64,000 nucleotides of DNA from positions 386,477-450,476 of the forward strand of contig JACOXI010000003.1 of NCBI GenBank assembly GCA_016176335.1, written 5' to 3'. The position numbers and the translations under genes are program-made. The notes beneath the pieces were generated by a model. The model worked only from the letters and a program-made list of their open reading frames with translations, searched no databases and was not told the origin of the DNA. Positions 27,421-64,000 of this stretch are shown one piece after another (the first letter of the stretch is position 1; the number at the start of each line of letters is the position of its first letter). The DNA is from Candidatus Daviesbacteria bacterium (lineage in GTDB: Bacteria; Patescibacteriota; Microgenomatia; Daviesbacterales; UBA10151).

Positions 27421-27421
27421 T

Positions 27422-32392: not shown

Positions 32393-32397
32393 GCCGC

Positions 32398-33231: not shown

Positions 33232-33232
33232 T

Positions 33233-34249: not shown

Positions 34250-34293
34250 GCTGTCGATTATACATTAAAAAAGAAAGGTTGTAGAATGAAAAA

Positions 34294-40310: not shown

Positions 40311-40326
40311 TTTTTTATTAAGTCTT

Positions 40327-41862: not shown

Positions 41863-42416
41863 TTTTGAATAAGAAATGCTATATGGGAGAAAGGGTACCA
41901 AAAGGGTTTCCTCATTACTTTTACTTCTAATTTTACATGAAGCTTTTTAAAAAGACTCTTCCATTCTGACAAATCCCTGAAAGATAAAGGTGTGCTTAGA
42001 TCTCCATAATGAAATTTATTAAGGGTAGCATCACTAATTTTTGCCACAAGACTCGGTTTCATTTCAAATATTAGTACTTTTTTGGCAACTCTTAAAGCAT
42101 CCTTTATAAGATTTTCTTGATTTTCTTTTGGAATATGATGGAGTACATCGTTTAATAAGGCCGTATCAAATTTACGTTTAAACTTTGGTAATTTGTCACT
42201 GGCCATTTTTTTAAAAGGAATATCATTATAAATCAAGTAATTTTTTATATCACACGCTTGTAGTTGTAATGAATAATGATGCCTTAATAGTTTTGTAATA
42301 GTTCCCCTACCGCAACCAATATCTAACACTCTTTCATTTTCTTTGAGCCATTTATCATAGGCTGTGGTCATCAGACGGAAGCGATAGGATGATGTTTTTT
42401 GGAAGATATTCATCAC
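41859..42416 (-). CDS. Class I SAM-dependent methyltransferase
   Basis: VLDIGCGRGTITKLL (motif I) and LLNDVLHHI. Confidence 0.7.
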   Translation of the reverse strand: MMNIFQKTSSYRFRLMTTAYDKWLKENERVLDIGCGRGTITKLLRHHYSLQLQACDIKNYLIYNDIPFKKMASDKLPKFKRKFDTALLNDVLHHIPKENQENLIKDALRVAKKVLIFEMKPSLVAKISDATLNKFHYGDLSTPLSFRDLSEWKSLFKKLHVKLEVKVMRKPFWYPFSHIAFLIQK

Positions 42417-43958: not shown

Positions 43959-43998
43959 TTTCTTGCAAGATTAATATGGCTAGGTTAACATTACGACA

Positions 43999-46738: not shown

Positions 46739-46761
46739 TTTATGAGGTAGAATTCTACAGT

Positions 46762-47997: not shown

Positions 47998-47998
47998 G

Positions 47999-48637
47999 AT
48001 GACAAATACATTCCCGCCCACATACAAATTAATACTCAAGCACCTGTTACCAAAAGGATTCCTAAAGGTTTTGGATTTAGGTTGTGGAGTTGGTGCTGCC
48101 GCAGAGGTTTTAAATAAGGGCAAGATCCATCAGTTTTTCGGTGTAGATATATACGAGCCTTATCTTAAGATATGCAGAAGGAGTGGGTTTTATAAAAAAG
48201 TTACAAAGGCTGATTTAAGAAATATAAATTTTAACAAAAAAAGCTTTGATGTGGTGATTTTATTTCAGGTGATAGAACACCTTAACAAAAAAGATGCAAA
48301 AAAACTCATCCGAAAAGCCGTGAGTGTTGCAACTAAGGCAGTGCTTATTTCCGTCCCAAATGGTCATTGTGATCAGGGAGTTTACGATGGAAATATTTAT
48401 AATAAACACAAATCAACATGGAATGCTGCGGATTTTAAAAAAATGGGCTTTAAAGTATATGGCCAAGGTTTAAAAATCATATACGGTTCTCGCAGTTACG
48501 AGGGTCGGATAGGGGCAAGCTGGTGGCAGAAAATAGTTGTCCCGCTTTCAATAATACTCCTTCCATTGGTGCTGATTTTTCCCGAGATTGCAGTGCAGCT
48601 GATAGGTGTAAAATATTTAGGAGGTGCAAGTAAATGA
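47999..48637 (+). CDS. Class I SAM-dependent methyltransferase
   Basis: VLDLGCGVGAAAEVL and ILFQVIEHL. Confidence 0.65.
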   Translation: MTNTFPPTYKLILKHLLPKGFLKVLDLGCGVGAAAEVLNKGKIHQFFGVDIYEPYLKICRRSGFYKKVTKADLRNINFNKKSFDVVILFQVIEHLNKKDAKKLIRKAVSVATKAVLISVPNGHCDQGVYDGNIYNKHKSTWNAADFKKMGFKVYGQGLKIIYGSRSYEGRIGASWWQKIVVPLSIILLPLVLIFPEIAVQLIGVKYLGGASK

Positions 48638-51600
48638 TGCATATTTTAAAAAAATTTGACACAAAAGTTATTTTCGTTCTTTTTTTCATTTCACTGTTTT
48701 TGGTTTTGATTTGGTTGCCGAACAATAAAATTATTGCCGGCGGAGATATAGGCATCCCAACTTATGCTCCTCAAAAACAACTTGAGGAGGTTACAAGTTC
48801 CTGGTGGGAATCTCACGCCACAGGAATCTCAAGCCCTGTAACTTATACCGCAGTACCCTTTTATTTAACCCTTTCGATACTGGAAAAACTGGGAATGGAT
48901 TCGGGCATGACTCAAAAAATAATCTTCTTTACCATTCTTTTTGGAAGTTCCTTAAGTATCTATTATTTGGGATTGAACTTTTCATTTAATAAATGGACGT
49001 CTCTTATTGCATGCTTGTTTTATATCTTTAATCTAACCTCCTTATCGGTTTGGCAAAGGGGAGTGCATAACGCCATGTTAATGCTTCTTTTGGTACCTCT
49101 TTCTCTTTTAATTTTGGTCTGGGGAATCAAAAATAAAAAATATGTTTCTATCTTAATAATAAATGTAGTTTCTTTTTTACTAGCCTATGTGTTTGGCGCA
49201 TTAGGTTTTCTGTTCTCTCTTTGGTTGCTCTGGACAGTTTACATAGCGGTAATATTGTTTGATTCTTGGAGTGATAAATTGGCAAGAAGATTTCTTTTAA
49301 CCTATTTTTTTCTATTGATAATTTCTTGGATTGGAAGTAATTTGTGGTGGATTACTAACCTTTTACAATCAAGCAATTATACCTTGGGTCAATTTACCCA
49401 AGGTGAACTAATGAGTAGAGGGTCGGATGTTTTAGCGGCTTTAAAGCCTTACCATGAGCCCTCAATTATATTACGGGGCTTAAGCAGATTTTATCTATAT
49501 GTTGTTCGTGACTGGGGGGAAATATATTCACACCCTCTTTTTATAATGCTTTCCTGGGTTCCCACACTGATAATCTTTTATACCGCCCTCATAAGAACCA
49601 ATTATAAGTTGACTCCTTGGAGATTTTTAATTGTATTGACTGTTTTAGTGCTGGCATTATCTAAAGGAGTGAACCCTCCTTTGGGAGAGTTAAACAGAAT
49701 TCCTTTTGATCTGTTTCAATTCCTTGCCCCGCTTCGAAACACATATGAGAAAGTGGGAATCCTTTTAACTATACCTTTCTCGTTGCTTTTTGCTTTAGGT
49801 ATTAATCAAATTATTTCAATCTTTAAAGCAAAAAAAATGGATTATCTACACTTACCACTACTAGTTGTAATCGTTATGTGTTTAATAGTTTTAGTCTGGC
49901 CGCTTTGGCTGGGTAAGTTATTTGTAAGCGAGGGAAGAAAGTATGCAGTTTCTATCCCGTCATATTATTCGCAGGCCAACAGTTGGATAAAAAGTAAAAT
50001 AGAAGCAGATGATACCAGAATTCTGCATCTTCCGTTATCTTGGGGTGAATCTATAGATTATAACTGGAATTATACAGGTGTCGAGCCAAGTCAATATTTT
50101 TTTAATGGATCATCCATCGGGTATCAAATCGGTGTACCTCCCGTCGACTCAAGAATAAGAGATATTCTACTGCTTATACATAAACAAGATACACTAAATA
50201 TTCAAAAAGCGCTTGTGTCATTAAATATTGGCTGGGTTGTTGTCCACAATGAAACATTGTTCAGAGACAGAATCTTAGAAAATCCAGAAAGAATTGATGC
50301 TTGGCTTGCCACCAAGCCACCATTTATAGAATACAAAACAGATTTTGGACCGCTTTCAATATGGAGGGTTAAAGATGAATATCGAGCAAGACATTTTTAT
50401 TCATCAGGTAAGTTAGTTCGTAGAGGTATACCCAATCCAACTTCTTCTTTAAATGTCTGGAATGAGATAAATAATTTAAATGATAGCTTCCTGACTGAAA
50501 TTCAAAAGGAACAAAGTTTGGATAAATTTATCTTTAAAAATACAATTATCCCGACAAGTAAAATAAAATATTCACCTTTAGGGTTGATAGATAAAGAAAC
50601 AGCGATAAATGATATCGCAAAAGTTGGTTTCCTGCCTGATTCACCCCTTTTTGTACTAACCCTGTTTAAGGAAAGTTTATTTTCCTTCTTAAATCAAAAC
50701 GATCGGGTCATAAACTGTTTTGATTTAAGCGGGAAGAGACTGAAAGAAGTTGTACTTTTAAAAAGAGGTCGGAGGTTGGAAGAAGCAGATAAAGCAATAA
50801 AAAGATATGAAAATCAGTTTAAAGAATGTATTAGTGTGGGGAAAGATACATTGAGCATTTATTTAAATACCCCCCAGGCGAGAGATTTAATTCTTAGTCA
50901 GCTAATCAGACAAAAAAACATTTTGGAAAATGAGTTTGACGAACAAAGCTTAAAGGAGGCTGTAAATCAAGTTAAAGATATTTTGAATGAATATCTTGCT
51001 AAGTTAGGCTTGGCACCAAAATATAATCCTGTCAAACAGAATTTAGGTAAGCAATTGATTGTTTTTGATTACCTTATTAACAAAAAAGGGGATTATTCAG
51101 TAGAGCTTAAGGAAGTAGACGAACAACTAATCAAAAATCCACCCCAAATTATTCAGATTGATAATAAAGCAGTTGATTTTTCCGCTGCAGAGGTTGGTGT
51201 AAATATCATTAGGTATCCGCAAATTAGACTGGATGAGGGGTTTCATGAAATCCAGCTGGAAACAGGTGAGGAGAAAAATATCCTAACTGATCTTTATGAT
51301 AACAAAAAACTACATCCGGATCCAGGGTTTACTTATCAAAAAGATCCGGAAAGTGGGGAAGGTTACTTCCGGGGGGCTCCCTCCAACGCAATAGTCAGTT
51401 TAATATTTGATATTCCAAATGTAAGTATTGAGGATATATATGAGGTGAGTTTTGATATTTATCATGTAGGTGGCACAGCACCTATGTTTATTATGACTCA
51501 TGATACTGACCCGACCGATTCCCATGGGTTAATAAAGCCCGCAGTCAGCAGAAATATTGATTTTAGTACTTATCCATCAGGATGGAGAAATGTGAAATTA

Positions 51601-52101
51601 AGTTACACCCCGGTATTAAATGCTACCTCTGCCAGAATGATTTTTATGTTATCCCCGCAAACGGGATTAAATAATCCCACAGAAGTATTATTAAAAAACA
51701 TCAGCATTAGAAAAGTTTTTCCTTATCAGCTGGTATTGGAGGAGGATAATCCATCTGTAATGCCACTGGGTACTGCCGAAATAAAATCTGTAAAGCTAAA
51801 TCCTACGGAGTACGAGATTAATTTAACAAATCAAAAATTACCGTATATCTTGATTTTTTCAGAAACTTTTCACCCACTTTGGCAAATAACAGATTCTTCC
51901 GGTAATAAAATAGATTTGCCTCATTTTAGCATCAATGGATTTGCAAACGGTTGGTTTGTTGATAAAGAGCTTGCTGACAGAATTAAGGTAAAGTTTATGC
52001 TTCAGAATGCCCTGACACAAGGTATTATTATCGCTGTTATATTTTTTATCTTTTCGTCTATTTTTCTTATCTATTTGGATCAACGAGGAAAAATAAAATG
52101 A
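48634..52101 (+). CDS. Giant (1155 aa) GT-C-like membrane protein with a long extracytoplasmic region and a YfhO/AftD-like C-terminal module
   Basis: The N-terminus has IAGGDIGIPTYAPQ... and there are more than 13 TM. The C-terminus has FHPLWQITDSSGNKIDLPHFSINGFANGWF plus a TM anchor. Paralogous in architecture to ORF 36764. ATGA overlap with the MTase. Confidence 0.55.
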   Translation: MMHILKKFDTKVIFVLFFISLFLVLIWLPNNKIIAGGDIGIPTYAPQKQLEEVTSSWWESHATGISSPVTYTAVPFYLTLSILEKLGMDSGMTQKIIFFTILFGSSLSIYYLGLNFSFNKWTSLIACLFYIFNLTSLSVWQRGVHNAMLMLLLVPLSLLILVWGIKNKKYVSILIINVVSFLLAYVFGALGFLFSLWLLWTVYIAVILFDSWSDKLARRFLLTYFFLLIISWIGSNLWWITNLLQSSNYTLGQFTQGELMSRGSDVLAALKPYHEPSIILRGLSRFYLYVVRDWGEIYSHPLFIMLSWVPTLIIFYTALIRTNYKLTPWRFLIVLTVLVLALSKGVNPPLGELNRIPFDLFQFLAPLRNTYEKVGILLTIPFSLLFALGINQIISIFKAKKMDYLHLPLLVVIVMCLIVLVWPLWLGKLFVSEGRKYAVSIPSYYSQANSWIKSKIEADDTRILHLPLSWGESIDYNWNYTGVEPSQYFFNGSSIGYQIGVPPVDSRIRDILLLIHKQDTLNIQKALVSLNIGWVVVHNETLFRDRILENPERIDAWLATKPPFIEYKTDFGPLSIWRVKDEYRARHFYSSGKLVRRGIPNPTSSLNVWNEINNLNDSFLTEIQKEQSLDKFIFKNTIIPTSKIKYSPLGLIDKETAINDIAKVGFLPDSPLFVLTLFKESLFSFLNQNDRVINCFDLSGKRLKEVVLLKRGRRLEEADKAIKRYENQFKECISVGKDTLSIYLNTPQARDLILSQLIRQKNILENEFDEQSLKEAVNQVKDILNEYLAKLGLAPKYNPVKQNLGKQLIVFDYLINKKGDYSVELKEVDEQLIKNPPQIIQIDNKAVDFSAAEVGVNIIRYPQIRLDEGFHEIQLETGEEKNILTDLYDNKKLHPDPGFTYQKDPESGEGYFRGAPSNAIVSLIFDIPNVSIEDIYEVSFDIYHVGGTAPMFIMTHDTDPTDSHGLIKPAVSRNIDFSTYPSGWRNVKLSYTPVLNATSARMIFMLSPQTGLNNPTEVLLKNISIRKVFPYQLVLEEDNPSVMPLGTAEIKSVKLNPTEYEINLTNQKLPYILIFSETFHPLWQITDSSGNKIDLPHFSINGFANGWFVDKELADRIKVKFMLQNALTQGIIIAVIFFIFSSIFLIYLDQRGKIK

Positions 52102-52406
52102 TTTTAATAGAATCGCTTGTAATTTTATTACCTATGATTGTCTTCTATATACTTGGTGCGCAAAATAAAAATCTGCACCCTGAATTTTTGATTAATTTTA
52201 TCTTCATAGTTTTATTTATTAGTTTGTTTATTTTTAGAAGCGGTAACATTCGTCATATGTATCTTGCCTTTGCACTACTCTTACTGGCAGTTTTTGCCAG
52301 TGTATTTGGACTGAATAATTTTCTCTATATTTCAAGCAGTTTGTCCTTAGGCTTATTAATACTTGGGATTATTAATATGTTGTTGTTTAAAAAAGAGGAG
52401 GCATGA
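52098..52406 (+). CDS. Small (102 aa) hydrophobic membrane protein of unknown function
   Basis: Three to four TM helices; ATGA overlaps on both sides. Confidence 0.4.
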   Translation: MILIESLVILLPMIVFYILGAQNKNLHPEFLINFIFIVLFISLFIFRSGNIRHMYLAFALLLLAVFASVFGLNNFLYISSSLSLGLLILGIINMLLFKKEEA

Positions 52407-54007
52407 GAAAAAATCTAGTTTCAGCAATTGTGGTAACAAGGAATAGAAAGCAAGATTTAATAAGATGTATAGGGTCTTTAAGTCATTCCGAATATAATCA
52501 ACTTGAAATGATTGTAGTTGATAACGCTTCCTTTGCCCCTGTTTCAACTTGGCTAAATAGGCAATACCCAAGAGTCAAAGTCATAACAAGCAATAAAAAT
52601 TTAGGGGCTGCCGGAGGGAGAAATTTAGGTTTTAAATTTGCAAAAGGGGAGACCTTTCTTTTTATGGATGATGATTCTTTAGCGGATAGAACAATGGTCG
52701 GTGAGCTTGCCAAAATACTCAAGGGTAGAAAAGATGTTGGAATTGTTCAGCCAAAAATTTACGACATGGAAAGAAAAAATGTGTTACAGGGAATCGGCTG
52801 TGACATTAATTTGCTCACAGGCAGAGTTTCTGCTGTAGGCATTAGAGAGAAAGATCTTGGACAATACGACAGGCTGATAGAAATTTCTGGAGTGGGCTGT
52901 ATTTGGATGGTCGAAAGAAAAGTAATTGAGAAAATTGGTGGATATGATGAAGACTACTTTATTCCATATGAGGATTTGGATTTTTCATTTAGAGCAAGAA
53001 TGGCTGGCTTTAAGATTTTATTTGTTCCTACTGCAAGAGCCTGGCATAAAGGAATAAAGTCAACGTTTATCAGTCCGCTTATTGATTATATTGGTATTAG
53101 AAATAAAGAAAGGGCATACAGAGTAAGTCGAAACAAGATAATTTTTATGAGAAAAAATGCACCTTTGTTAAATTTTCTAATTTTTATTTTTGTTATTAAT
53201 CCAATATATTTACTCGTTCATTCAATTTTAATTTCCTTAACCGGACGTTTTGACGTATTAGTAAAATACTGGTTGGGTTTTATATCGGGTATATGGTATG
53301 CAGTCAAATATGAAAATCTAATTCTTAAGCTTTACAATGATATAGATAAGCAACTAATAGGGTTCAAATATCATCTGATGGTTTGGACAGATCCTATCTG
53401 TTGGGTGATTGATAAATCCGCAAAGAACATTCTGGATGTTGGAAGCGGACTAGGTATACCGATGGAATTAATAAGAAGGAGAATGAAAGTTCAATATGCA
53501 GTTGGGATAGACAAATTTAGGCCGTATATAGATTATCTAAAAAGTAAGAAAGTACATGATAAGTATATTTTAGGAGATGTAAGAAAAATGAGATTTAGAG
53601 CAAAATCTTTTGATGTAGTTTTTGCATCAGATTTAATTGAACACTTGCCAAAAAAAGATTCATGGAAGTTGATAGAAAATATGGAGAGAATTGCTAAAAG
53701 ACAAGTAATTGTTACGACATCCTTAGGCTACTTTTTTCATCCGGCAGTTGATGGAAACCCACTTCAGTTACATAAATCGGGTTTTCACCCGCAGGAATTT
53801 GAAATAAAGGGATATAAGACTTTTAAGTACGGAAGAAAAGAAATACTCGGAACGAATGGATGGGTGCATACTATTAATTTCGATTCTTTAAAAAAGTTAT
53901 TATTTTTGGTTAATTCTTTATTTTTTCCACTTTTTATAATTTTTCCCAATTTCGGTAATTATTGCTTTATTGCTTACAAAAATACGGAAAATAATAAGTA
54001 TAATTAG
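52403..54007 (+). CDS. Fusion protein: N-terminal GT2 glycosyltransferase, central TM helices, C-terminal class I SAM methyltransferase
   Basis: N-terminus VSAIVVTRNRKQDLIRCIGSL...EMIVVDNAS...FMDDDS. C-terminal domain ILDVGSGLGIPMEL...VFASDLIEHL. Confidence 0.65.
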   Translation: MRKNLVSAIVVTRNRKQDLIRCIGSLSHSEYNQLEMIVVDNASFAPVSTWLNRQYPRVKVITSNKNLGAAGGRNLGFKFAKGETFLFMDDDSLADRTMVGELAKILKGRKDVGIVQPKIYDMERKNVLQGIGCDINLLTGRVSAVGIREKDLGQYDRLIEISGVGCIWMVERKVIEKIGGYDEDYFIPYEDLDFSFRARMAGFKILFVPTARAWHKGIKSTFISPLIDYIGIRNKERAYRVSRNKIIFMRKNAPLLNFLIFIFVINPIYLLVHSILISLTGRFDVLVKYWLGFISGIWYAVKYENLILKLYNDIDKQLIGFKYHLMVWTDPICWVIDKSAKNILDVGSGLGIPMELIRRRMKVQYAVGIDKFRPYIDYLKSKKVHDKYILGDVRKMRFRAKSFDVVFASDLIEHLPKKDSWKLIENMERIAKRQVIVTTSLGYFFHPAVDGNPLQLHKSGFHPQEFEIKGYKTFKYGRKEILGTNGWVHTINFDSLKKLLFLVNSLFFPLFIIFPNFGNYCFIAYKNTENNKYN

Positions 54008-54011
54008 ATTT

Positions 54012-55196
54012 ATGAAAAGGTTGGAAATATTTAAAATTTTTATAGTTTGGAGGGTGGTATTATTTGCAGTGTCAGCTTTGGCAATTCTTTTTATTACTGA
54101 TTTTGGAGTAAGGTTTCCTTATTATAATACGGTATTGGAGCCAACTGGACTACCTTCTTGGGTATGGGGCTTTGGAAATTTCGATGGGGTGCATTATTTA
54201 AGAATTGCTCAAGATAGTTACAGCGCGCAGTATTCGCAGGCTTTCTTTCCTTTGTACCCGTTACTCATAAGAATATTTACGGAAGCGAATATTCTTTTAC
54301 CCAAAGATCCCAATCTTGACACGCGAATTTATGTAGATCCAACCTTTTTCTATAGCGGATTGATACTTTCAAATCTAATTTTACTAATAGCTTTATATTT
54401 TTTTTACAAATTAGTTATCCTCGATTACAAAAAAGAGATTGGCCTAAAATCTATTATATTACTGCTTGCTTTTCCGACTGCTTTTTATTTCGGGTCGATA
54501 TATACCGAATCTTTGTTTTTGCTTCTTGTAGTTGGATTTTTCTATTTAATGAGAAAACAAAATTTTATTGCCGCAGGAGTATTGGCAGGATTAGCCTCCG
54601 CCACCAGAATTTTCGGACTTTTGCTTCTACCTGTGTTTCTTGCCGAACTATACTTAAAAATTAAGAATAAAGAGATATCGTTAAAAAGCGAACAATTTGT
54701 CAAAGCTCTGATTGGGATTTTACTTGCCCCTACGGGTATCCTGCTTTATATGCTTTATCTACGGTTTGAATTTGATAATCCCCTATATTTTTTAACTTCC
54801 CAGCCACTGTTTGGGGCAGAAAGGAGAAATGAAATTATTCTATTGCCGCAAGTTCTGTTCAGGTACATTAAGATTTTTTTAACTGTTTCCCCAATTTCAT
54901 TACCTTTTTTCAATGCTTTTTTAGAATTTTCTTTTACTCTGATAGCTTTAGGTCTATTGTTTGTTTCATTTAAGAAAATTAGATTCAGTTACTTTATATT
55001 CACTTTTGGTAGTTTGCTACTGCCAACACTTACAGGAACCCTCTCTTCGATGCCAAGGTATTCTTTAATGTCGTTTCTTATGCTCCCATTTTTAGTACGG
55101 TTTTCAGGAAGACATTTTAAATTAGTGGTGGTTTCGTTTATACTCTTACAAATGATCCTAGTTGGTCTTTTTACCAGAGGATATTGGGTGGCTTGA
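54012..55196 (+). CDS. PIG-V/GT76-like GT-C mannosyltransferase-family membrane protein
   Basis: FDGVHYLRIAQDSYSAQYSQAFFPLYPLL resembles the WDxxHxLxIAExGY...AFFPLxPL signature of PIG-V-type mannosyltransferases; more than 8 TM. The alternative start at 53970 lies within the previous gene. Confidence 0.5.
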   Translation: MKRLEIFKIFIVWRVVLFAVSALAILFITDFGVRFPYYNTVLEPTGLPSWVWGFGNFDGVHYLRIAQDSYSAQYSQAFFPLYPLLIRIFTEANILLPKDPNLDTRIYVDPTFFYSGLILSNLILLIALYFFYKLVILDYKKEIGLKSIILLLAFPTAFYFGSIYTESLFLLLVVGFFYLMRKQNFIAAGVLAGLASATRIFGLLLLPVFLAELYLKIKNKEISLKSEQFVKALIGILLAPTGILLYMLYLRFEFDNPLYFLTSQPLFGAERRNEIILLPQVLFRYIKIFLTVSPISLPFFNAFLEFSFTLIALGLLFVSFKKIRFSYFIFTFGSLLLPTLTGTLSSMPRYSLMSFLMLPFLVRFSGRHFKLVVVSFILLQMILVGLFTRGYWVA

Positions 55197-55198
55197 AA

Positions 55199-55858
55199 AT
55201 GAAAATATATTTAGTCATACCGGCATATAATGAAGCCAAAAGAATTGACAATTTGCTTGAAAGTCTTAAGGGGGTTAACCTTCCTGTCATTTTGGTTGAT
55301 GACGGATCTTTTGATAAAACTTTTCAGTTGGCAAAAAAATATCCGGTTACTGTTTTGCGGCACAAAGTAAATCTGGGAAAAGGTGCAGCGCTTAAAACCG
55401 GTTGCGAAGCGGCAATTCTGCTAGGTGCTAGTGCTGTAATTTTAATGGATTCTGATGGGCAGCATAAAGCTTCTGATTTGCCTAAGTTTGTTGGAAAAAT
55501 TAGCATGGAAACATATGATGTTGTTTTTGGTTCAAGGAATTTAAATATAGGAGTTCCTTTGGTGCGATATATTGGGAATAAAATAGAATCAGTATTAATC
55601 TCGTTATTATATGGAATCTATATTTCAGATCCGATATGTGGTTTCAGGGCAATGACTAAAAAAGCATACCAAAAAATGAAGTTGGAATCAGCGGGATATG
55701 ATATTGAAACAGAAATGGTGATTAAGACTAAACATTTTGGTTTCAAGTATTGTGAGGTGCCTGTGGAAACTGTATACTATGATAAGTTTAAAGGGGTGAC
55801 AATTTTGGATGCGTTGGGAATATTTACTAATATATTAAAATGGAAAATATTTAAATGA
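55199..55858 (+). CDS. GtrB/Dpm1-like GT2 polyprenol-phosphate sugar synthase
   Basis: IYLVIPAYNEAKRI...VILMDSDGQH...DPICGFRAMTKKAYQ...GYDIETEM. Confidence 0.7.
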   Translation: MKIYLVIPAYNEAKRIDNLLESLKGVNLPVILVDDGSFDKTFQLAKKYPVTVLRHKVNLGKGAALKTGCEAAILLGASAVILMDSDGQHKASDLPKFVGKISMETYDVVFGSRNLNIGVPLVRYIGNKIESVLISLLYGIYISDPICGFRAMTKKAYQKMKLESAGYDIETEMVIKTKHFGFKYCEVPVETVYYDKFKGVTILDALGIFTNILKWKIFK

Positions 55859-56211
55859 TCTTAGGACTACAAGTTATTGCTTTAGTATTTGCATTAGTAA
55901 TGATTTATTTTGCTTACCTTCATTATAGAAGGGGTGAAATCAACGGCTTGGAAATTTTATTTTGGCTTACTGCGTGGATGGGAGCAATATTTATAGCAAT
56001 ATTTCCTGAAGCTTTTCGTGCTTTCTCTGCAACAATTGCAGTTAATAGAGCCTTTGACCTTGCTATGATTGGAGCATTTATATTGGTTATTCCAACTGTT
56101 TATGTTTCATATATCAGAACAAAAAGAATAGAAAAGAAAATAGAAGATTTGGTAAGAAAGGAATCTTTAAAACCTTTGGATGAGCTACAGAAAAACAGAA
56201 AGTCTACCTAA
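55855..56211 (+). CDS. DUF2304-like small membrane protein
   Basis: YLHYRRGEINGLEILFWLTAWMGAIFIAIFPEAF... then a charged C-terminal tail. This pattern accompanies GtrB-like GT2 genes. ATGA overlap upstream. Confidence 0.5.
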   Translation: MILGLQVIALVFALVMIYFAYLHYRRGEINGLEILFWLTAWMGAIFIAIFPEAFRAFSATIAVNRAFDLAMIGAFILVIPTVYVSYIRTKRIEKKIEDLVRKESLKPLDELQKNRKST

Positions 56212-56980
56212 GATTTCAATTGTGATCCCCTCCTATAATAAAGCCTCTTATATAGAGGCTACTTTGAGCTCGATAATAAATCAAGGGTACCCAAATCTGG
56301 AAGTTATTATTCAGGATGGCGGATCAAAAGATGGGACTGCAGAGATAATAAAACGATATGCGAAAAAGTATCCAGAAATTTTTCGATGGTCTTCAAAAAA
56401 GGATAAGGGCCAATTGGATGCAATAAATAAAGGGCTTGAAAAATCAAGCGGTGAAATATTGACATACATTAATGCCGATGATGTTTATAAAGATGGCTCG
56501 TTGTTAGAAATAGGCAGATATTTCCAGAAGAATACAAGTACTCTTTGGGTGACAGGCTATGGAGATATTATAGACAAAGATGGGAAAATTATTTCTCGAT
56601 TTGTGACCAGTTATAAAAATACCCTTCTTGATATTAATAAATTCTTTCTACTTATTATTGTTAATTTTATTACTCAACCTTCAACATTTCTAAGCAGAAA
56701 AGCATATCTGCAATTTGGACCTTTTACAGGTACAAGAAATTATGTAATGGAATATAATTTATGGCTGAAAATAGGAAAGTCTAAGATGCCTTATATAATC
56801 AAAAAAACTTTATCCAGTTTTAGGTTAACTGCTGACAATATTTCTTCTACCTCAGCAAAGGAACTATTAAAAGTGGACAATAAAATTACAAAAAAATATA
56901 CCAACAACGGTTTACTTTTTGCTTTACATAAGCTTCATAATCTTGGTAGAATTTTCATGTTAAAATTTTTAAAAAAATGA
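56180..56980 (+). CDS. GT2-family glycosyltransferase (paralog of ORF 62245)
   Basis: LPKISIVIPSYNKASYIEATLSSIINQGYPNLEVIIQDGGSKDGT...KDKGQLDAINKG...NADDVY. Confidence 0.7.
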   Translation: MSYRKTESLPKISIVIPSYNKASYIEATLSSIINQGYPNLEVIIQDGGSKDGTAEIIKRYAKKYPEIFRWSSKKDKGQLDAINKGLEKSSGEILTYINADDVYKDGSLLEIGRYFQKNTSTLWVTGYGDIIDKDGKIISRFVTSYKNTLLDINKFFLLIIVNFITQPSTFLSRKAYLQFGPFTGTRNYVMEYNLWLKIGKSKMPYIIKKTLSSFRLTADNISSTSAKELLKVDNKITKKYTNNGLLFALHKLHNLGRIFMLKFLKK

Positions 56981-57840
56981 GAAGTAAACAAAATCGGGAG
57001 GTTTTGCAGTTAGAATTAAAAGCCACAGAACTGCGCAAGCAAATTTTAGAGATGATTGTTACAGCTCGTGGAACACATATTGCCAGTGCATTTTCAATAG
57101 TTGAGTTAGTACTGTATCTTTACAAGAACGTTTTACGTATTGACCCAAAAAATCCAAATGAAGAAAAAAGAGATAAATTTGTCCTAAGCAAAGGACATGG
57201 TTGTGCCGCACTGTACGTTGTTTTAGCTGACCTTGGTTTTTTCCCAAAAAAACTCCTCAATACATTTACTTCTTTTGGTAGTATCTTGGGAGGACATCCA
57301 GATAGATCAAAAATACCAGGAGTTGAAGTTTCAACCGGGTCCTTGGGTCATGGGTTTTCTGTAGCGGTCGGATTTGCCCTGGCAAATAAAATGAATCACT
57401 CTAAATATCGGGTTTACTGTCTTGTTGGCGATGAAGAATTAAATGAAGGAAGTAATTGGGAAGCAGCCCAGATAGCAGCACATCACAAATTGGATAATCT
57501 ATCGTTAATAATTGATGAAAACAAGCTTATGATAAGTGGCTTTATGAAGGATATTTTAGATTCCTTTTCACTTAAAGAAAAATTTCGTGCCTTCGGATGG
57601 AACACGATCGAAGTTAATGGGCATAATTTCTCTGATTTAAGCGAAAAATTCAAACTAGCGCCAATTAAAAATGGTAAGCCGATAGTCATGATCGCTGATA
57701 CTATAAAGGGGAAAGGGGTAAGTTTTATGGAAAATAAAAAAGAGTGGTATAGTGTTCTTCCAGACGAAGAACAAATGGATGTAGCAGTAGAAGAGTTAAA
57801 CAGCAATATTGAAAAGCTAAGAGAACAGCTGGAAATATAA
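56977..57840 (+). CDS. Transketolase, N-terminal (TPP-binding) subunit
   Basis: SKGHGCAALYVVLADLGFF...GSLGHGFSVAVGFALA...CLVGDEELNEGSNWEAAQIAAHHKLDNLSLIIDENK. ATGA overlap with the GT2 upstream. Confidence 0.85.
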   Translation: MRSKQNREVLQLELKATELRKQILEMIVTARGTHIASAFSIVELVLYLYKNVLRIDPKNPNEEKRDKFVLSKGHGCAALYVVLADLGFFPKKLLNTFTSFGSILGGHPDRSKIPGVEVSTGSLGHGFSVAVGFALANKMNHSKYRVYCLVGDEELNEGSNWEAAQIAAHHKLDNLSLIIDENKLMISGFMKDILDSFSLKEKFRAFGWNTIEVNGHNFSDLSEKFKLAPIKNGKPIVMIADTIKGKGVSFMENKKEWYSVLPDEEQMDVAVEELNSNIEKLREQLEI

Positions 57841-57870
57841 GCAAAGTTTGAATTTTAATGGATTAAAATT

Positions 57871-58794
57871 ATGAGAGATTCATATGTAAGTGCCATATAC
57901 AATGCAACTAAAATCAACAGTAATGTACTTTGTATTGTTGGTGATATCGGCTCTTTTCTGCTCCGACATTATATTGAAGACTTTCCTGCAAATTATCTTA
58001 ATCTAGGGGCGGCTGAAGCCAACATGGTAGGAGTAGCTGCTGGGCTTGCCATGTCTGGAAAAATTCCCTTTGTATATACAATAACTCCGTTTATTACAGC
58101 TAGATGTTATGAACAGATCAAGCTTGATGTTTGCCATAATAGGGCAAACGTAAAACTTGTTGGAGTTGGAAGTGGCGTTTCCTATGGAACAATGGGATCG
58201 ACCCATCATTCTCTCGAAGACATTGCAATTATGAGAGTTCTTCCAAACATGACAATTTTTTCTCCCTCGAATAAGCAGGAGGTTGAAGAGGCGGTATTTG
58301 CTGCCATGAAACTCAAAGATCCTGTGTACATAAGGTTAACGTTGACTGCGAATTCGACTGATAAATATAGAGGTAAGTTTGAAATTGGAAAGGCTCGCAT
58401 TGTTCGAAAAGGACAAAATGCTGCAATTATGGCCACCGGCGATATGGTAAGCATTGCAATTAATGCGGCGAAAGCTCTAGAAAAAAATAATATTAATTGT
58501 TTTGTAATTGACTTTCCTACTTTAAAGCCGATCGATGAGTCTTTAATAAAGAAGTTATCTGAAAAGTGCAAGGCAATTATTTCTATAGAAGAGCACAGTG
58601 TAGTTGGGGGATTAGGCAGTACCATTGGTTCTGTACTATCGCAGTATCCAAATAACAAGACTTGCTTCAAAATACTTGGATTTAATGATGTTTTCTGTGG
58701 CGAATACTCCAGCGATAAATTAAAGTTATTTGAAGAATATGGTCTTTCAACAAGAAACCTCGTAAAAACAATGCTTGACCTTTTCAATTCATGA
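57871..58794 (+). CDS. Transketolase, C-terminal (pyrimidine-binding) subunit
   Basis: LGAAEANMVGVAAGLAMSGKIPFVYTITPFI...YGTMGSTHHSLEDIAIMRVLPNMTIFSPSN. Confidence 0.85.
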   Translation: MRDSYVSAIYNATKINSNVLCIVGDIGSFLLRHYIEDFPANYLNLGAAEANMVGVAAGLAMSGKIPFVYTITPFITARCYEQIKLDVCHNRANVKLVGVGSGVSYGTMGSTHHSLEDIAIMRVLPNMTIFSPSNKQEVEEAVFAAMKLKDPVYIRLTLTANSTDKYRGKFEIGKARIVRKGQNAAIMATGDMVSIAINAAKALEKNNINCFVIDFPTLKPIDESLIKKLSEKCKAIISIEEHSVVGGLGSTIGSVLSQYPNNKTCFKILGFNDVFCGEYSSDKLKLFEEYGLSTRNLVKTMLDLFNS

Positions 58795-58911
58795 AGCAAT
58801 TAATAAATCCAATTTCAAAAATTATTATCAAAGACTCGAAAAAGGTTTTAAATAGATCTGACTTCTCAACCTTTAAAAATAAGTCAATTTTTGAGTACCA
58901 GTGATGTATAC

Positions 58912-59015
58912 TTGGATTTGACAAAGATTAGAAAGGAATTCAATAAACGTCATTTTGTTCCGTTAGAGGAAGGATTAAGAACTACGATTACTTGGCAAAA
59001 AAAATTATATGTCTA
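58912..59015 (+). pseudogene. Probable remnant of the C-terminus of an SDR sugar epimerase/dehydratase (LDLTKIRKEFNKRHFVPLEEGLRTTITWQKKLYV*)
   Basis: Translating this 215-bp gap gives a terminal ~33 aa matching the D.(S/T)K....LG(W/F).P...LEEGL..T..W tail of extended SDR epimerases. There is no matching start or N-terminal domain upstream. Confidence 0.3.
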
Positions 59016-59947
59016 ACAAATCCAGGAAGAAGTTAACACTTGTTACAGGAGCGGGAGGACTCTTGGGATACGCCATTCGACAGCTCGCTCCCAAAGATAC
59101 TGATTATATCACCCGCAGTGATGGAGATTTAACTGATTTTGCAAAGACGAAAAAGATATTTCAGAAAATCAAGCCTAACCAGGTTATACATCTGGCCGCT
59201 GAAGTAGCAGGTATTGGAGGCAATATGATGCATTCAGGTAAATTTTTCAGAGATAATATTATGATTAACATAAATATCTTTGAGGCTGCACGGATAAACG
59301 GCGTTGATAAACTTATCTCATTTATGTCTACTTGTGTTTTTCCTGATAAATGTAAGTATCCTCTAAATGAAAAGGATATTCAAAGCGGCCCCCCGCATCC
59401 TTCAAACTTTGGATACGCTTACGCAAAAAGGATGCTGGAAGTACAAAGTGCTGCTTATCGCAAAGAATGGGGCTGTAATTTTATCGTAGCTATACCTACC
59501 AATATATATGGTGAAAATGACTTTTGGAATTTAGAAGATGGCCATGTGGTACCCTCATTAATTCATAAATGTTTTCTGGCCAAAAAGAATAAAGAAGATT
59601 TCATAGTGTGGGGAAGTGGCAGGCCGCTACGTGAATTTGTTTATTCGCAGGATGTCGCCAAACTAATCTTATGGGCGATAGATGAATATAATGAGGAATC
59701 TCCCATTATTTTTACCAATAGCAAGGAGAGTAGCATTAAAGACCTTGTTGATCTGGTTGTAAGGGAAGTAGGTTTTAAAGGTAAAGTAATTTTTGATAGC
59801 ACAAAACCTGAGGGGCAATTTAGAAAACCATCTGATAATAGCAAGCTAAAAAAGTATCTACCTAATTTCAAATTCACCCCGCTTGATAAAGGTATTAAAA
59901 ATACAGTTGAGTGGTTTATCAAAAACTATCCAAATGTTCGAATGTAG
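59009..59947 (+). CDS. fcl: GDP-L-fucose synthase (GDP-4-keto-6-deoxy-D-mannose 3,5-epimerase/4-reductase), eukaryote/TSTA3-like
   Basis: LTLVTGAGGLLG...IHLAAEVAGIGGNMMH...STCVFPDKCKYPLNEKDIQSGPPHPSNFGYAYAKRM...IPTNIYGENDFWNLEDGHVVPSLIHK...VWGSGRPLREF. From memory, this aligns closely along its whole length with metazoan GDP-fucose synthase. Confidence 0.75.
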   Translation: MSNKSRKKLTLVTGAGGLLGYAIRQLAPKDTDYITRSDGDLTDFAKTKKIFQKIKPNQVIHLAAEVAGIGGNMMHSGKFFRDNIMININIFEAARINGVDKLISFMSTCVFPDKCKYPLNEKDIQSGPPHPSNFGYAYAKRMLEVQSAAYRKEWGCNFIVAIPTNIYGENDFWNLEDGHVVPSLIHKCFLAKKNKEDFIVWGSGRPLREFVYSQDVAKLILWAIDEYNEESPIIFTNSKESSIKDLVDLVVREVGFKGKVIFDSTKPEGQFRKPSDNSKLKKYLPNFKFTPLDKGIKNTVEWFIKNYPNVRM

Positions 59948-59952
59948 CAGCA

Positions 59953-60888
59953 ATGAATAATAATAGAATACATCTTACTCCAAGAGATTTTGAGGTTGTT
60001 TTTCAGGATAATTTATCTGAATTCGTAAAGAAAAAAATTAAACACTTTAATTTCTTAGCCCAAATGGTATCTGTACAGGATAGAGATAAGATTTTGTTAA
60101 AAATCATAAAGACTCTTCTTGACCCACAGGTGGCCAAAGCCGGTAGGCATAGGCAGCTGCAATGGGAAAAAGGGTGGGCAGAAAATTTGAAAGCATTAAA
60201 GAGCCATAAAATCGAGTCAATAATTCCTCTTTATTTTGGCAAGTATAATGTTGTTAGGTGGAGACAGGAATTTTTAAGGCCAAGATCTTCAAACTTTGAG
60301 TACAATATGTTGGCAGTAATACAATATTGGTTATTCGATAAATATTTAAGATCTGCAGAGTGTATTTATGAGTTTGGTTGTGGCACTGGTCACAATCTGC
60401 TAAGAGTGAGGGAGATTAATCCAAAAGCACAAATTTGGGGACTTGATTGGACTCACTCCTCACAAGAAATTATCAAAATGATAAGTGCTGATAAAAATGA
60501 CTCCAGATTATTTGCCGATAACTTCGACTTTTCTAATCCCGACAAAAATTTCAGTCTAAACAAAAAGTCAGTAGTATACACTGTTGCTGCGCTAGAGCAA
60601 TTAGGAGATAATTTTCAGCCCTTCATTGATTTTTTATTGGAGAAGAAACCTGAGATTTGTTTACACATTGAACCAATTGCCGAATTACTTAACGAAGAAA
60701 ATCTAGTTGATTATTTATCGATACTTTATTTTAAAAAAAGAAATTATCTCAGCGGATTTCTATTAAAATTACGGGAATTGAAAGAAGCAGGGAAAATCAA
60801 GATTCACATGGCCAAACGTACTTTCATTGGTAGTTTATATATCGAAGGTTATTCTGTCGTTGTCTGGTCTCCTGTTTTTAAAACTTAA
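59953..60888 (+). CDS. Class I SAM-dependent methyltransferase
   Basis: IYEFGCGTGHNLLRV (motif I). The preferred ATG at 59953 follows the fcl stop; the track start 59911 lies inside fcl. Confidence 0.55.
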   Translation: MNNNRIHLTPRDFEVVFQDNLSEFVKKKIKHFNFLAQMVSVQDRDKILLKIIKTLLDPQVAKAGRHRQLQWEKGWAENLKALKSHKIESIIPLYFGKYNVVRWRQEFLRPRSSNFEYNMLAVIQYWLFDKYLRSAECIYEFGCGTGHNLLRVREINPKAQIWGLDWTHSSQEIIKMISADKNDSRLFADNFDFSNPDKNFSLNKKSVVYTVAALEQLGDNFQPFIDFLLEKKPEICLHIEPIAELLNEENLVDYLSILYFKKRNYLSGFLLKLRELKEAGKIKIHMAKRTFIGSLYIEGYSVVVWSPVFKT

Positions 60889-61077
60889 TTGAAAGATTAT
60901 GGAGGCTGTTTCATCAAAAAGTTACCTACAACCAATATTATGAAATTTTCCCTAAATTTAAGGTGTCTTGCCTAAACTTCTTTGAGAAGATCCACCTTTT
61001 CCAAAAAGAAATGAGGACACTACTAACTAATAGTTTTCAACTAATTCCCACCCAAAAGTTGCAAATTGCAGTTAGTT

Positions 61078-61118
61078 AGGTATACCATTGCTAATACCTC
61101 TCTTCGGATTTCTTTTGA
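61078..61118 (+). terminator. Weak candidate hairpin plus T-rich tail in the convergent gap
   Basis: AGGTAT (61078-83) pairs with ATACCT (61094-99), leaving a 10-nt loop, and is followed by CTCTTCGGATTTCTTTTG. The stem is only 6 bp and AT-rich. Confidence 0.15.
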
Positions 61119-61146
61119 AAGTTCCTCGAGCTTTTTTAATTCCATG

Positions 61147-62226
61147 TTATTGCTTTAAATTTCTAAACCATTCTGAAGTAATTACTAAACCTTCATTTAA
61201 GGAGACAAAGGTTTTTTTTTTAAATTCAGAAAGATAGCGATTATTATCTAAGGTTAATATTAGTGGTGTACCTCTTACCGCTCTTTCTTTAAATTTGTTA
61301 TTAAATTTTGCCTGGTTAATTTGGGCTATTAATTTTGCAAGGTTTTTAATCGTAGTAGTTTCCTTACCGCATGCATTATAGACAATTTCTCTTCCGTTAA
61401 GCATTATATTTAAAAGCACCTCAATCATATCAGTTATGAAGCAAAAAGTTCGCTCCGCCAGGCCTTCATCCATCATTATAATTTCCTTCGCTTCTTGAGC
61501 TTTCTTTATAAATTCTGAAATTACCCGTTTATCATCATATTTTACTCCTGGACCATAGGCAATAAGCGCCCGAGCTATTTTAATTTTAATTTTTTTACTA
61601 AAAAGATAGCAAATAGTTTCGGCAAGGCGTTTTGATTCAGAGTAAATTGCCCGGTCTGTTAATGTATTCACATTACCAAAGTATGTTTCCTTTGTTGGAA
61701 CATGAGTTTTATCTGCCTCTCCATATACTTCTGCTGAGCTTAAATAAAGAAAAATTGCCCGGTTTTTCTCAGATTGTTCAAGAAGATCAAACAAGACATC
61801 TATATTTAGACTAACAGTTTCTTTTGGGTATTCTAAAAATTTTTTAGGTTGGGCGTAGGTTGCGCAATGAATAAGATATTGAAACTTGAGATTTTTTAAC
61901 AGTTCATTTTTTGTAAGGTCTCGTTGTATATACCTGATTGTTGCCGATTGCGGCATCCATAATTCTCGCGAAGATCGATGAATTGCTATAATCTTGAGAT
62001 TCAGTTTTTCTCTTTCGTTTAAAAAATCCAAGTAAGCTACGAGGTTTGATCCTATAAGTCCACTTGCTCCGGTAATGAGAATGGTTTTGTCTTTTAATTG
62101 GGTGCAGTTAAGAACGGTAATTGTGGAGTAATATTCTTGAATGAATTCTTGTAAAGTCTTCATACATTGGGTTATTCTACTCATTTTTTTATTGCGAAGC
62201 AACAAGCTTGTCTTATTTATTAGCAA
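61147..62226 (-). CDS. NAD-dependent epimerase/dehydratase (extended SDR)
   Basis: ILITGASGLIGSNLVAYL and YSESK (YxxxK). The start is uncertain: the maximal ORF starts at a TTG at 62226 with an AAGGA upstream, and in-frame ATGs lie at 62184 and 62163. Confidence 0.65.
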   Translation of the reverse strand: MLINKTSLLLRNKKMSRITQCMKTLQEFIQEYYSTITVLNCTQLKDKTILITGASGLIGSNLVAYLDFLNEREKLNLKIIAIHRSSRELWMPQSATIRYIQRDLTKNELLKNLKFQYLIHCATYAQPKKFLEYPKETVSLNIDVLFDLLEQSEKNRAIFLYLSSAEVYGEADKTHVPTKETYFGNVNTLTDRAIYSESKRLAETICYLFSKKIKIKIARALIAYGPGVKYDDKRVISEFIKKAQEAKEIIMMDEGLAERTFCFITDMIEVLLNIMLNGREIVYNACGKETTTIKNLAKLIAQINQAKFNNKFKERAVRGTPLILTLDNNRYLSEFKKKTFVSLNEGLVITSEWFRNLKQ

Positions 62227-62244
62227 TTACTTATCCTTCATATT

Positions 62245-63129
62245 GTGAGATTTCCTACAAAACTGTATACTATGTTAGATTTAAAAATAAGGAAAATGAG
62301 AGACAACTTACCTAAAATTTCTATAGTAATGCCTTGTCTTAATTCGGTCGACTTCATTGAAAGATCAATAAGATCAGTTATTGAACAAGAATATAAAAAT
62401 ATTGAACTCTTTATAAAAGACGGTGGTTCTAGTGATGGTACCTTAGAAATAATTAGACATTATGCTAAAAAGTACCCACGTTTACTAAGGTGGATTTCTG
62501 AAAAGGATAAAGGGCAGGCAGATGCAATTAATAAGGGTATGAAAAAAGTAAATGGAGATATTTTAACTCATTTAAACGCAGATGATGTTTATAAAGAGGG
62601 TGCATTAAGAAAAGTTTCCGAATATTTTATGAAAAATCCTAATGTAATGTGGGCATATGGTAAGGCTGATATTATAAATGCCAATGATAAGGAAATAAGA
62701 AGGTGGATTACTCTTTATAAGAATTTTTGGCTGAAAAATTATTCTTACAACACGCTTCTAGTGTTGAATTATATTTCTTCAATGGCTTGTTTTTGGAGAA
62801 AAGAGGCAGCCAAAGAGGTAGGAGAATCGGACATTAATCAGCCTTTTGTTATTGATTATCATTATTGGTTAAGACTAGGAAAAAAATATAAGGCAGGAGT
62901 TATAAATGAGTATCTTTCAAGTTTCAGAATAAGCTATTCAAATAAAAGCAGTATAGCTTTTGTTAAACAATTTCAAGATGAATTTAATGTTGCCAAGAGA
63001 TTTACCAATAATAATTTAATTCTTTTTTTACATCTTTTACATTATAACCTAATAATTTTTATATATTCCATTTTAAAAATTATTAAGAATTTTACTTCTA
63101 GAAATTCAAATATCCAGGGTAGTGCATAA
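62245..63129 (+). CDS. GT2-family glycosyltransferase (paralog of ORF 56180)
   Basis: LPKISIVMPCLNSVDFIERSIRSVIEQEYKNIELFIKDGGSSDGT...KDKGQADAINKG...NADDVY. Confidence 0.7.
   Translation: MRFPTKLYTMLDLKIRKMRDNLPKISIVMPCLNSVDFIERSIRSVIEQEYKNIELFIKDGGSSDGTLEIIRHYAKKYPRLLRWISEKDKGQADAINKGMKKVNGDILTHLNADDVYKEGALRKVSEYFMKNPNVMWAYGKADIINANDKEIRRWITLYKNFWLKNYSYNTLLVLNYISSMACFWRKEAAKEVGESDINQPFVIDYHYWLRLGKKYKAGVINEYLSSFRISYSNKSSIAFVKQFQDEFNVAKRFTNNNLILFLHLLHYNLIIFIYSILKIIKNFTSRNSNIQGSA

Positions 63130-64000
<871 letters not shown>

Follow-up and report, generated by a model that had tools for sequence, protein, structure and literature searches.

Branching of sugars at carbon by thiamine diphosphate (ThDP) dependent enzymes has been proven for YerE-like enzymes of the decarboxylase family and for E1-type pairs (PMC12247030, a 2025 review). 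Split-gene transketolases are found in the miharamycin and amipurimycin clusters, where they have been proposed to attach a hydroxyacetyl group to a keto sugar, and 13 further candidates have been predicted, all of them in Streptomycetes and none characterised (PMC12247030). In Ch65, a complete Microgenomates genome, the housekeeping transketolase genes stand in an operon with an aldolase gene (PMC7143001). In the literature searched, no transketolase was found in connection with O-antigen clusters or GDP-sugar pathways. Here, we analysed a 64,000-nucleotide stretch of contig JACOXI010000003.1 of a Candidatus Daviesbacteria bacterium (the whole stretch being called the window), which contains a split transketolase-like gene pair, TK-N and TK-C. 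The reading that we favour, and regard as fairly probable, is that TK-N/TK-C form a heteromeric ThDP-dependent carboligase dedicated to the tailoring of a nucleotide sugar for a cell-surface glycan; that the pair has a dedicated glycan role instead of a housekeeping one is highly probable.

The genes of the locus, in window coordinates, are the following.
56180..56980, + strand: GT2 glycosyltransferase (Pfam Glycos_transf_2, E=1.9e-29)
56977..57840, + strand: TK-N, ThDP-binding subunit, 287 aa (Pfam Transketolase_N, E=2e-45)
57871..58794, + strand: TK-C, pyrimidine-binding and C-terminal subunit, 307 aa (Transket_pyr, E=1e-28; Transketolase_C, E=1.5e-24)
58791..59016, + strand: UXS-like short-chain dehydrogenase/reductase (SDR), an internally deleted remnant (comparison with SDR345 of the related locus L001)
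59009..59947, + strand: GDP-L-fucose-synthase-like SDR of the eukaryote GFUS type (PDB 4e5y, E=5e-97)
59953..60888, + strand: class I S-adenosylmethionine (SAM)-dependent methyltransferase, the fifth gene of the cassette described below (predicted fold, EFGCGTGHN motif)
61147..62226, - strand: UXS-like extended SDR, a paralogue (Pfam Epimerase, E=1.5e-34)

An earlier note on this DNA had placed a split transketolase pair at 56977-58794, and both open reading frames (ORFs) are indeed intact, with matching coordinates and domains. The overlap that it described between the start of TK-N and the stop of the GT2 ORF at 56180 can be read directly in the sequence AAAAAAATGAGAAG at 56971-56984, where ATGA (56977-56980) contains both the ATG of TK-N, starting at 56977, and the TGA that ends the GT2 gene; 30 nt separate TK-N from TK-C. 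The pair was also said to lie directly upstream of fcl and of a SAM-dependent methyltransferase gene. Both genes are present, and the neighbours named, GT2, fcl and methyltransferase, were correct; "directly" does not hold, the 214-nt gap being occupied by the SDR remnant, and the UXS-like SDR, which is the key conserved partner, had been overlooked. In the deposited annotation of the 456,706-bp contig, which belongs to a metagenome-assembled genome of the Microgenomates, TK-N is labelled 'transketolase' and TK-C 'hypothetical protein HYS96_02475'.

Among solved structures, the split transketolase of Carboxydothermus is the closest, its chains 6yak and 6yaj matching TK-N (E=9e-77) and TK-C (E=5e-57), respectively. 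TK-N exhibited a score of 155 bits with Transketolase_N, compared to 50 bits with DXP_synthase_N and 24 bits with E1_dh, and TK-C scored 182 bits with the transketolase model and 163 bits with the DXS model TIGR00204. The features of a DXS are not present, as there are two genes and not a single chain of ~620 aa, and the TIGR00204 scores of the two subunits, 52 and 163 bits, are under the cut-off of 466. No TPP_enzyme_N/M/C architecture of the YerE-like type was listed for the window proteins (Pfam, E up to 0.001), the pair showing transketolase domains only. Both subunits have the lengths of their orthologues, and the dN/dS values in comparison with a sister strain, 0.13 for TK-N and 0.16 for TK-C, are near those of the adjoining genes, all of them calculated from few substitutions.

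The active site was compared with 6yak/6yaj, with the human transketolase and with orthologues that share 44-96% identity with the pair (46 for TK-C, 53 for TK-N). The residue roles are those established for the yeast transketolase by mutagenesis and structures, in which His30, His69 and His103 hold the C1-hydroxyl of the dihydroxyethyl intermediate. The yeast residues and their counterparts are listed here.
His30, cofactor/donor: H34 of TK-N, invariant
His69, cofactor/donor: H74 of TK-N, invariant
His103, cofactor/donor: H107 of TK-N, invariant
Asp157, cofactor/donor: D152 of TK-N, invariant
Asn187, cofactor/donor: N182 of TK-N, invariant
Glu418, cofactor activation: E49 of TK-C, invariant (46)
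His481, cofactor/donor: H112 of TK-C, invariant
His469, sugar-phosphate pocket: Gly, non-canonical in 46/46
Asp477, ligand of the acceptor C2-hydroxyl: Met, non-canonical in 46/46
Arg528, sugar-phosphate pocket: Leu, non-Arg at the aligned column in 46/46
Ser386, sugar-phosphate pocket: Ser in the window TK-C, Ala in the majority of orthologues
Arg359, sugar-phosphate pocket: R2 of TK-C, retained
His263, ligand of the donor C1-hydroxyl: Tyr258 of TK-N, Tyr in 30/53 and His in 23/53

The ThDP/Mg2+ motif GDG-X(25-30)-N is present as G151-D152-E153...N182, with position 153 being Gly in 39 and Glu in 14 of the 53 TK-N sequences. The sugar-phosphate pocket and Asp477 of a canonical transketolase are not found as a set, with the Arg359 counterpart conserved and the Ser386 position occupied by Ser in the window TK-C; in the Arg528 column, two orthologues (P0115 and P0118) have an Arg at the adjacent position. 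TK-C presents the signature motifs GVGSGVSYGTMGSTHH and YIRLTL, the first of these being a loop that carries a new and invariant tyrosine, Tyr105. We also considered the replacement of His263 by Tyr as a hallmark of the family and rejected it, Tyr being present in only 30 of the 53 orthologues. As judged from the aligned residues, the cofactor machinery is conserved and the sugar-phosphate pocket is rebuilt, and the pair, on the same comparison, is not an ordinary transketolase.

A locus survey, in which each species was represented by a single reference genome, gave 80 loci, the majority of which can be assigned to two groups by their motifs. For the comparison of neighbours, 24 clear canonical loci and 29 clear loci of the second group, named class II here, were chosen by eye, and the three genes before and the three after the pair were taken. 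The canonical group exhibits the motifs DADLxxST, THAGxxVGEDGxSHQ and RLGR, with WHG in the N subunit; class II exhibits the TK-C loop GxGxxYxxxGx(S/T)HH, with GSLGHG and NKxQ in the N subunit. The window pair carries this class II loop and GSLGHG. The hosts of class II include Paenibacillus, Roseovarius, Hoeflea, Pseudoduganella, Dehalococcoidia, Verrucomicrobia, several groups of the candidate phyla radiation (CPR) and one archaeon. In a neighbour-joining tree of 101 TK-C sequences, the window clade together with class II was split from the canonical pairs in 58 of 60 bootstraps, and the canonical group was recovered in 59 of 60, for bipartitions redefined after inspection of the tree; strict monophyly had failed with the initial class labels, under which the intermediates L018, L022, L035 and L039 were unclassified. 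The sub-clade of the window itself is weakly supported (21-28 of 60 bootstraps). Among the nearest 149 cluster representatives, taken at 50% identity from a library of 1.8 billion proteins, at least 86 have a non-canonical motif and 7 a canonical one.

The genes around the pair differ between the two groups. The Pfam summary of the class II neighbours draws on 25 of the 29 loci, with 150 ORFs in total. Extended SDRs account for 23 of these 150 ORFs compared to 2 of 135 around canonical pairs (Fisher p=3e-5), and an SDR is present within three genes of the pair in 16/29 class II loci compared to 2/24 canonical loci (p=4e-4). The other class II neighbours include 13 DegT, 11 methyltransferases, 8 GT4, 6 Bac_transf, 6 TylF and 6 GT2 proteins. 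The canonical pairs are accompanied by RpiB, PFK, Rpe, transaldolase and unrelated housekeeping genes.

In the relatives, the pair is part of a five-gene cassette, composed of TK-N, TK-C, a UXS-like SDR, a GFUS-like SDR and a methyltransferase, which is found in CPR bacteria, in Omnitrophica and on a 5.5-Mb contig, often with genes of the GT10/GT11 fucosyltransferase families next to it. The same neighbourhood is present in more than 10 independent loci from several phyla and, therefore, the arrangement is not due to chance. The gene order of the closest clade is [GT10 or GT2] - TK-N - TK-C - UXS-like SDR - GFUS-like SDR - methyltransferase, and the position of the window GT2 gene is occupied by a gene of the GT10 fucosyltransferase family in L001 and L003. 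The UXS-like SDR directly follows TK-C in every relative examined (L001-L006 and L086-L088). It has 345-364 aa in the closest relatives (L001, on a contig of 1.05 Mb in GCA_040960095.1, L003-L005 and L006), and its closest solved relative is the human UDP-glucuronate decarboxylase UXS1 (E=7e-31).

The order TK-N - TK-C - UXS-like SDR is also conserved in the deeper relatives L086-L088, whose TK-C proteins are 44-54% identical, and these loci additionally contain genes for Gmd, a GFUS-like SDR, a DegT aminotransferase and glycosyltransferases, GT10 among them. All three have Gmd a few genes away from the pair; in L087 it is directly upstream of TK-N, the order being GT2 - Gmd - TK-N - TK-C - SDR - DegT - GFUS-like. 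The idea that the UXS-like SDR is a disguised Gmd was not adopted, a genuine Gmd with the GITGQDGSYL motif co-occurring with it in L086-L088. When the methyltransferase was the only query, the complete cassette, its gene order unchanged, was again recovered in an Omnitrophica metagenome-assembled genome (L089) and on the 5.5-Mb contig (L090), where GT10 and GT11 genes, both of fucosyltransferase families, adjoin the cassette after its end. The identities of the L089 and L090 proteins to those of the window or of L001 are 50-54% for the SDR, 67% for the GFUS-like protein, 52-55% for the methyltransferase, 42-45% for TK-N and about 30% for TK-C. By this gene content, the TK-like pair is a constant member of a nucleotide-sugar cassette, the other members of which point to GDP-6-deoxyhexose chemistry.

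Two observations on these relatives are added here. The TK-like subunits of L089 (2357..4038) and L090 (2357..4005) are shorter, with 254-267 and 293-295 aa; the class II loop is present and the Transketolase_C domain is barely detectable, and this domain may be dispensable or degenerate in that branch. The L006 locus, on a 7-kb contig (CAYHEJ010000039.1) binned as 'uncultured Gammaproteobacteria', encodes a TK-C that is 69% identical to the Daviesbacteria protein. Because the other equally close relatives are all metagenome contigs or named CPR bacteria (Daviesbacteria, Levybacteria), the assignment to this bin may be wrong.

The earlier note had read the pair as dedicated to the tailoring of sugar precursors, with plain pentose-phosphate metabolism as the alternative. 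It had asked for a phylogeny with the housekeeping pairs, in which the lineages came out as separate with the above bootstrap values, and it had considered that a sole transketolase in the genome, ordinary substrate-binding residues and relatives carrying the pair among pentose-phosphate genes would together speak against a dedicated role. Neither of the last two was observed: the counterparts of His469, Asp477 and Arg528 are replaced throughout the 46 orthologues, and the neighbours are nucleotide-sugar and glycosyltransferase genes, never pentose-phosphate genes, in all of the relatives' loci examined. Its guess of GDP-4-keto-6-deoxymannose as the substrate is compatible with the presence of Gmd near the pair in the three deeper relatives. 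The remodelled active site, the separate lineage and the glycan-gene context together favour the dedicated role over the housekeeping one.

In the window, the UXS-like SDR is reduced to a remnant of 226 nt. Its N-terminal 37 codons, at 58791..58904, begin with an ATG that overlaps the TK-C stop and resemble, in a by-eye comparison, the first ~33 residues of L001 SDR345. Its C-terminal 37 codons, at 58903..59016, are in a different frame, end with a stop that overlaps the GFUS-like start, and match residues 305-340 of the same L001 protein with 61% identity (36 aa). Three independent assemblies of sister strains, with 89.9-98.6% nucleotide identity over three aligned blocks, present a larger deletion, which leaves the first 23 codons of the SDR fused in frame to the GFUS-like gene.
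L091 7815..8816 and L093 7398..8399, sister strains: SDR-GFUS-like chimera, 333 aa
Because independent sister-strain assemblies carry this larger deletion, the loss of the SDR is real and not an assembly artefact. The paralogue at 61147..62226, located 2.3 kb downstream and also present in the sister strains, is 40% identical to L001 SDR345 and 32-37% identical to other downstream SDRs, and has the SS(A/S/G)E(V/I/L)Y and YxxSK motifs in common with the cassette SDRs. It is a candidate for the replacement of the deleted cassette partner.

The two remaining cassette genes were also characterised. The GFUS-like protein (59009..59947) scored 328 bits against human GFUS (4e5y), compared to ~160 bits (~1e-45) against E. 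coli Fcl, and its score of 227 bits with the NCBIfam bacterial Fcl model is under the cut-off of 500. It retains the Ser-x-Cys and YxxxK motifs, is 80% identical to the L001 protein and is a predicted 3,5-epimerase/4-reductase of GDP-4-keto-6-deoxymannose. The methyltransferase (59953..60888) exhibited a sub-threshold match to Pfam Methyltransf_31 in addition to its EFGCGTGHN motif. Its AlphaFold model, with a pLDDT of 93.7, presents a class I SAM-methyltransferase fold, for which Foldseek returned SibL and the sugar O-methyltransferases AtmM/RebM (E ~1e-9). The family has 1268 homologues, 52-78% identical in an aligned sample, and is without a Pfam or NCBIfam model. A ~130-residue N-terminal extension precedes the Rossmann core, and the members are widely labelled 'hypothetical protein'.

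Considering the context together with the pattern of the active site, a specific mechanism in which two carbons would be transferred onto a GDP-keto sugar has, in our view, about an even chance of being correct; we infer its acceptor, donor, position of attack and order of steps as follows. Gmd, probably with the GFUS-like enzyme, would make a GDP-linked 6-deoxyhexose, on which a ring carbonyl would either be already present or be introduced by the UXS-like SDR. GDP-4-keto-6-deoxymannose would serve as the acceptor, or else GDP-fucose after conversion to a keto derivative by the UXS-like SDR. The pair would then load a two-carbon unit onto ThDP, probably dihydroxyethyl (ketol), the ketol (hydroxyacetyl) unit being favoured because the three C1-hydroxyl-binding histidines are conserved. 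With the phosphate pocket lost, a phosphorylated donor is disfavoured, and the unit would probably come from hydroxypyruvate or from a neutral, non-phosphorylated ketose. Addition of the unit to the carbonyl would give a C-branched sugar, with a tertiary alcohol and a hydroxyacetyl side chain. By analogy with YerE/YerF, or with the oxidoreductase that introduces the keto group in the miharamycin proposal, the partner SDR would reduce or prepare the keto group, after which the methyltransferase would methylate the product and the adjoining glycosyltransferase, GT2 here and GT10 or GT11 in the relatives, would attach the sugar. We propose, more tentatively than this transfer step, that the product of the cassette would be a new GDP-linked, branched or chain-extended, methylated 6-deoxy sugar, placed by enzymes of the fucosyltransferase families on the cell surface of CPR bacteria and others, and that the pair would belong to a large lineage, present in many phyla, of split transketolase-like carboligases acting on nucleotide-activated sugars.

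It is very improbable that the pair is a housekeeping pentose-phosphate transketolase, present in a glycan operon by chance or supplying fructose-6-phosphate in a minimal CPR cell. Some of the class II carriers (Paenibacillus, Roseovarius, Hoeflea and Pseudoduganella) presumably have a full-length TktA too. A housekeeping role agrees with the conservation of all the cofactor residues and of the Arg359 counterpart, and in at least one complete genome of the Microgenomates the housekeeping enzyme is itself a split transketolase (PMC7143001); the search for a second transketolase spanned the 64-kb window only. It is difficult to reconcile with the replacement of the His469, Asp477 and Arg528 counterparts in every one of the 46 orthologues, with the split from the canonical split transketolases in the tree, and with nucleotide-sugar neighbours throughout the loci examined, the canonical pairs being found with RpiB, Rpe, transaldolase and PFK. 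In Ch65 the transketolase genes are followed by aldolase and not by glycan genes (PMC7143001). A relic, without function since the loss of the SDR partner disabled its pathway, is distinctly unlikely. The partner is here a 226-nt remnant, deleted further in the sister strains, and Gmd is not found in the window; yet TK-N and TK-C are of full length, their dN/dS of 0.13-0.16, calculated from small counts in comparison with a sister strain in which the partner is likewise missing, is like that of the neighbours, the 40%-identical SDR paralogue is present 2.3 kb downstream in both strains, and the translational coupling to the GT2 gene is maintained.

Two other explanations keep a role in sugar modification and change its chemistry. 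A DXS/E1-like reaction, in which pyruvate would be decarboxylated and a hydroxyethyl or acetyl unit, instead of a ketol, passed to a keto-sugar as in YerE or AviB1-B2, is unlikely. The DXS score of TK-C nearly equals its transketolase score, the loss of the phosphate pocket is compatible with a small acid donor, His263, which binds the C1-hydroxyl of the donor, is a Tyr in the window sub-clade, and the proven C2-branching enzymes of sugars are all pyruvate-dependent (PMC12247030). The scores of TK-N, on the other hand, are far higher for Transketolase_N than for DXP_synthase_N or E1_dh, and the His30, His69 and His103 counterparts are invariant. It is scarcely probable that a glycolaldehyde unit is captured and oxidised to give a glycolyl decoration on an amino sugar, without formation of a C-C bond. 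Glycolyl transfer by the NapB/NapD-QncN/QncL systems, to which this route would be similar, is said to have been described by Peng et al. in PNAS in 2012. DegT is frequent in the wider lineage (13/150 neighbours, and also L086-L088 and L090), but it adjoins the pair neither in the closest clade nor in the window, no lipoyl, ACP or acyltransferase partners are present in the Pfam lists of the loci examined, and the invariant partner is an SDR and not a carrier protein.

Several points weigh against our own preferred reading, a carboligase dedicated to nucleotide-sugar tailoring by ketol transfer. The partner SDR is deleted in the window genome and in the sister strains, and the pathway may be altered or partly disabled here, though the paralogue is present. 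No Gmd is found in the window nor within 10 kb of the pairs of the closest relatives. The His263 counterpart varies between Tyr and His among the orthologues, and the retained Arg359 counterpart suggests that some anionic group is probably still bound. A tblastn search with TK-N and TK-C as queries found no second transketolase within the 64-kb window, which is all that this search covers. The sequence would also fit an aldehyde acceptor, from which a chain-extended sugar would result, equally with a branched one, and the split transketolases of Streptomyces, which are the precedent for the reaction, are themselves a proposal only (PMC12247030).

The whole 64-kb window is a glycosylation island, most of its ORFs longer than 100 aa matching glycosylation-related families. 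It contains ~20 GT2/GT4 glycosyltransferases, two Wzx-like flippases, a nucleotide-sugar dehydrogenase, several SDRs and ~10 methyltransferases, and no pentose-phosphate genes were found among its annotated ORFs. Six paralogous PMT_2/STT3-like GT-C membrane glycosyltransferases of 479-559 aa are encoded on the + strand at 10261..11940 and 14758..22429; five of the six genes are consecutive, and the ORF 14758..16137 inside that stretch is without a Pfam match. This array suggests extensive protein or lipid-linked glycosylation. The ORF 52403..54007 (534 aa) combines two domains in a single protein, GT2 (residues 7-178) and class I methyltransferase (residues 343-434). Additionally, six large ORFs of 524-1155 aa have no Pfam match at E<=1e-4.
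4808..8233: large ORF
8241..10259: large ORF
36764..39316: large ORF
40327..41901, - strand: large ORF
44795..46738, - strand: large ORF
48634..52101: large ORF
For the last of these, the sister-strain counterpart (in L092, assigned by synteny and unaligned) has a precomputed GT-C_AftD match, and the protein may be an AftD-like membrane glycosyltransferase. The cumulative GC skew climbs near-monotonically over the window (1..64000), the majority of the genes being on the + strand, which is consistent with the co-orientation of genes and replication reported for other Microgenomates (PMC7143001).

If the proposed function is correct, the pair would represent a third enzymatic way, widespread in its occurrence, of making branched or higher-carbon sugars, besides the YerE-like and E1-type enzymes, active in the primary cell-envelope glycans of CPR bacteria, Omnitrophica, Proteobacteria, Firmicutes and others, and the five-gene cassette would predict a new GDP-activated sugar. 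The cassette is a defined and clonable gene set for glycobiology, and it offers biocatalysis a transketolase scaffold in which evolution has remodelled the phosphate pocket. The labels 'transketolase' and 'hypothetical protein' given by annotation pipelines can wrongly assign a pentose-phosphate enzyme to small CPR genomes.

Compared by cluster description, the known systems closest to the present locus include the miharamycin and amipurimycin clusters, which also combine a split transketolase pair in a sugar-tailoring cluster with an adjoining oxidoreductase thought to make the keto acceptor; here the UXS-like SDR stands beside the pair in all the relatives, and for both systems a two-carbon ketol transfer to a sugar carbonyl is proposed. 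The miharamycin and amipurimycin pairs belong to Streptomyces secondary metabolism and would act on the core sugar of a nucleoside antibiotic, whereas the present pairs are found in cell-surface glycan clusters of CPR bacteria and many other phyla, together with GDP-sugar enzymes (Gmd, GFUS-like) and GT10/GT11 genes. In the synthesis of yersiniose A by Yersinia pseudotuberculosis, the ThDP enzyme YerE, encoded in an O-antigen cluster, uses the carbonyl at C4 of a nucleotide-activated 6-deoxy-4-keto sugar for the addition of two carbons and is followed by an SDR reductase, YerF, a pairing mirrored here by the constant association of TK pair and SDR. Unlike the present pair, which is split, belongs to the transketolase superfamily and is accompanied by GDP-sugar genes, YerE is a single chain of the acetolactate-synthase-like decarboxylase superfamily that uses pyruvate as donor and a CDP sugar. 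The E1-type enzymes AviB1/AviB2, AlmDI/DII and KbDH-alpha/beta are, like TK-N/TK-C, two-subunit ThDP enzymes of the same structural superclass, and they put a two-carbon branch on a keto sugar in deoxysugar clusters; the AviB1/AviB2-type proteins match E1_dh and use pyruvate, whereas for TK-N the E1_dh score is far under that of Transketolase_N. Finally, the split transketolase of Carboxydothermus hydrogenoformans (6yak/6yaj), as the archaeal and Firmicute TktAB, shares with the present pair the two-gene organisation, the fold and the cofactor-binding residues. The pair described here differs from these canonical enzymes in its genomic context and in its motifs, with VGDIGxFLLR, GVGSGVSYGTMGSTHH and IRLTL in place of DADLxxST, THAGxxVGEDGxSHQ and RLGR.

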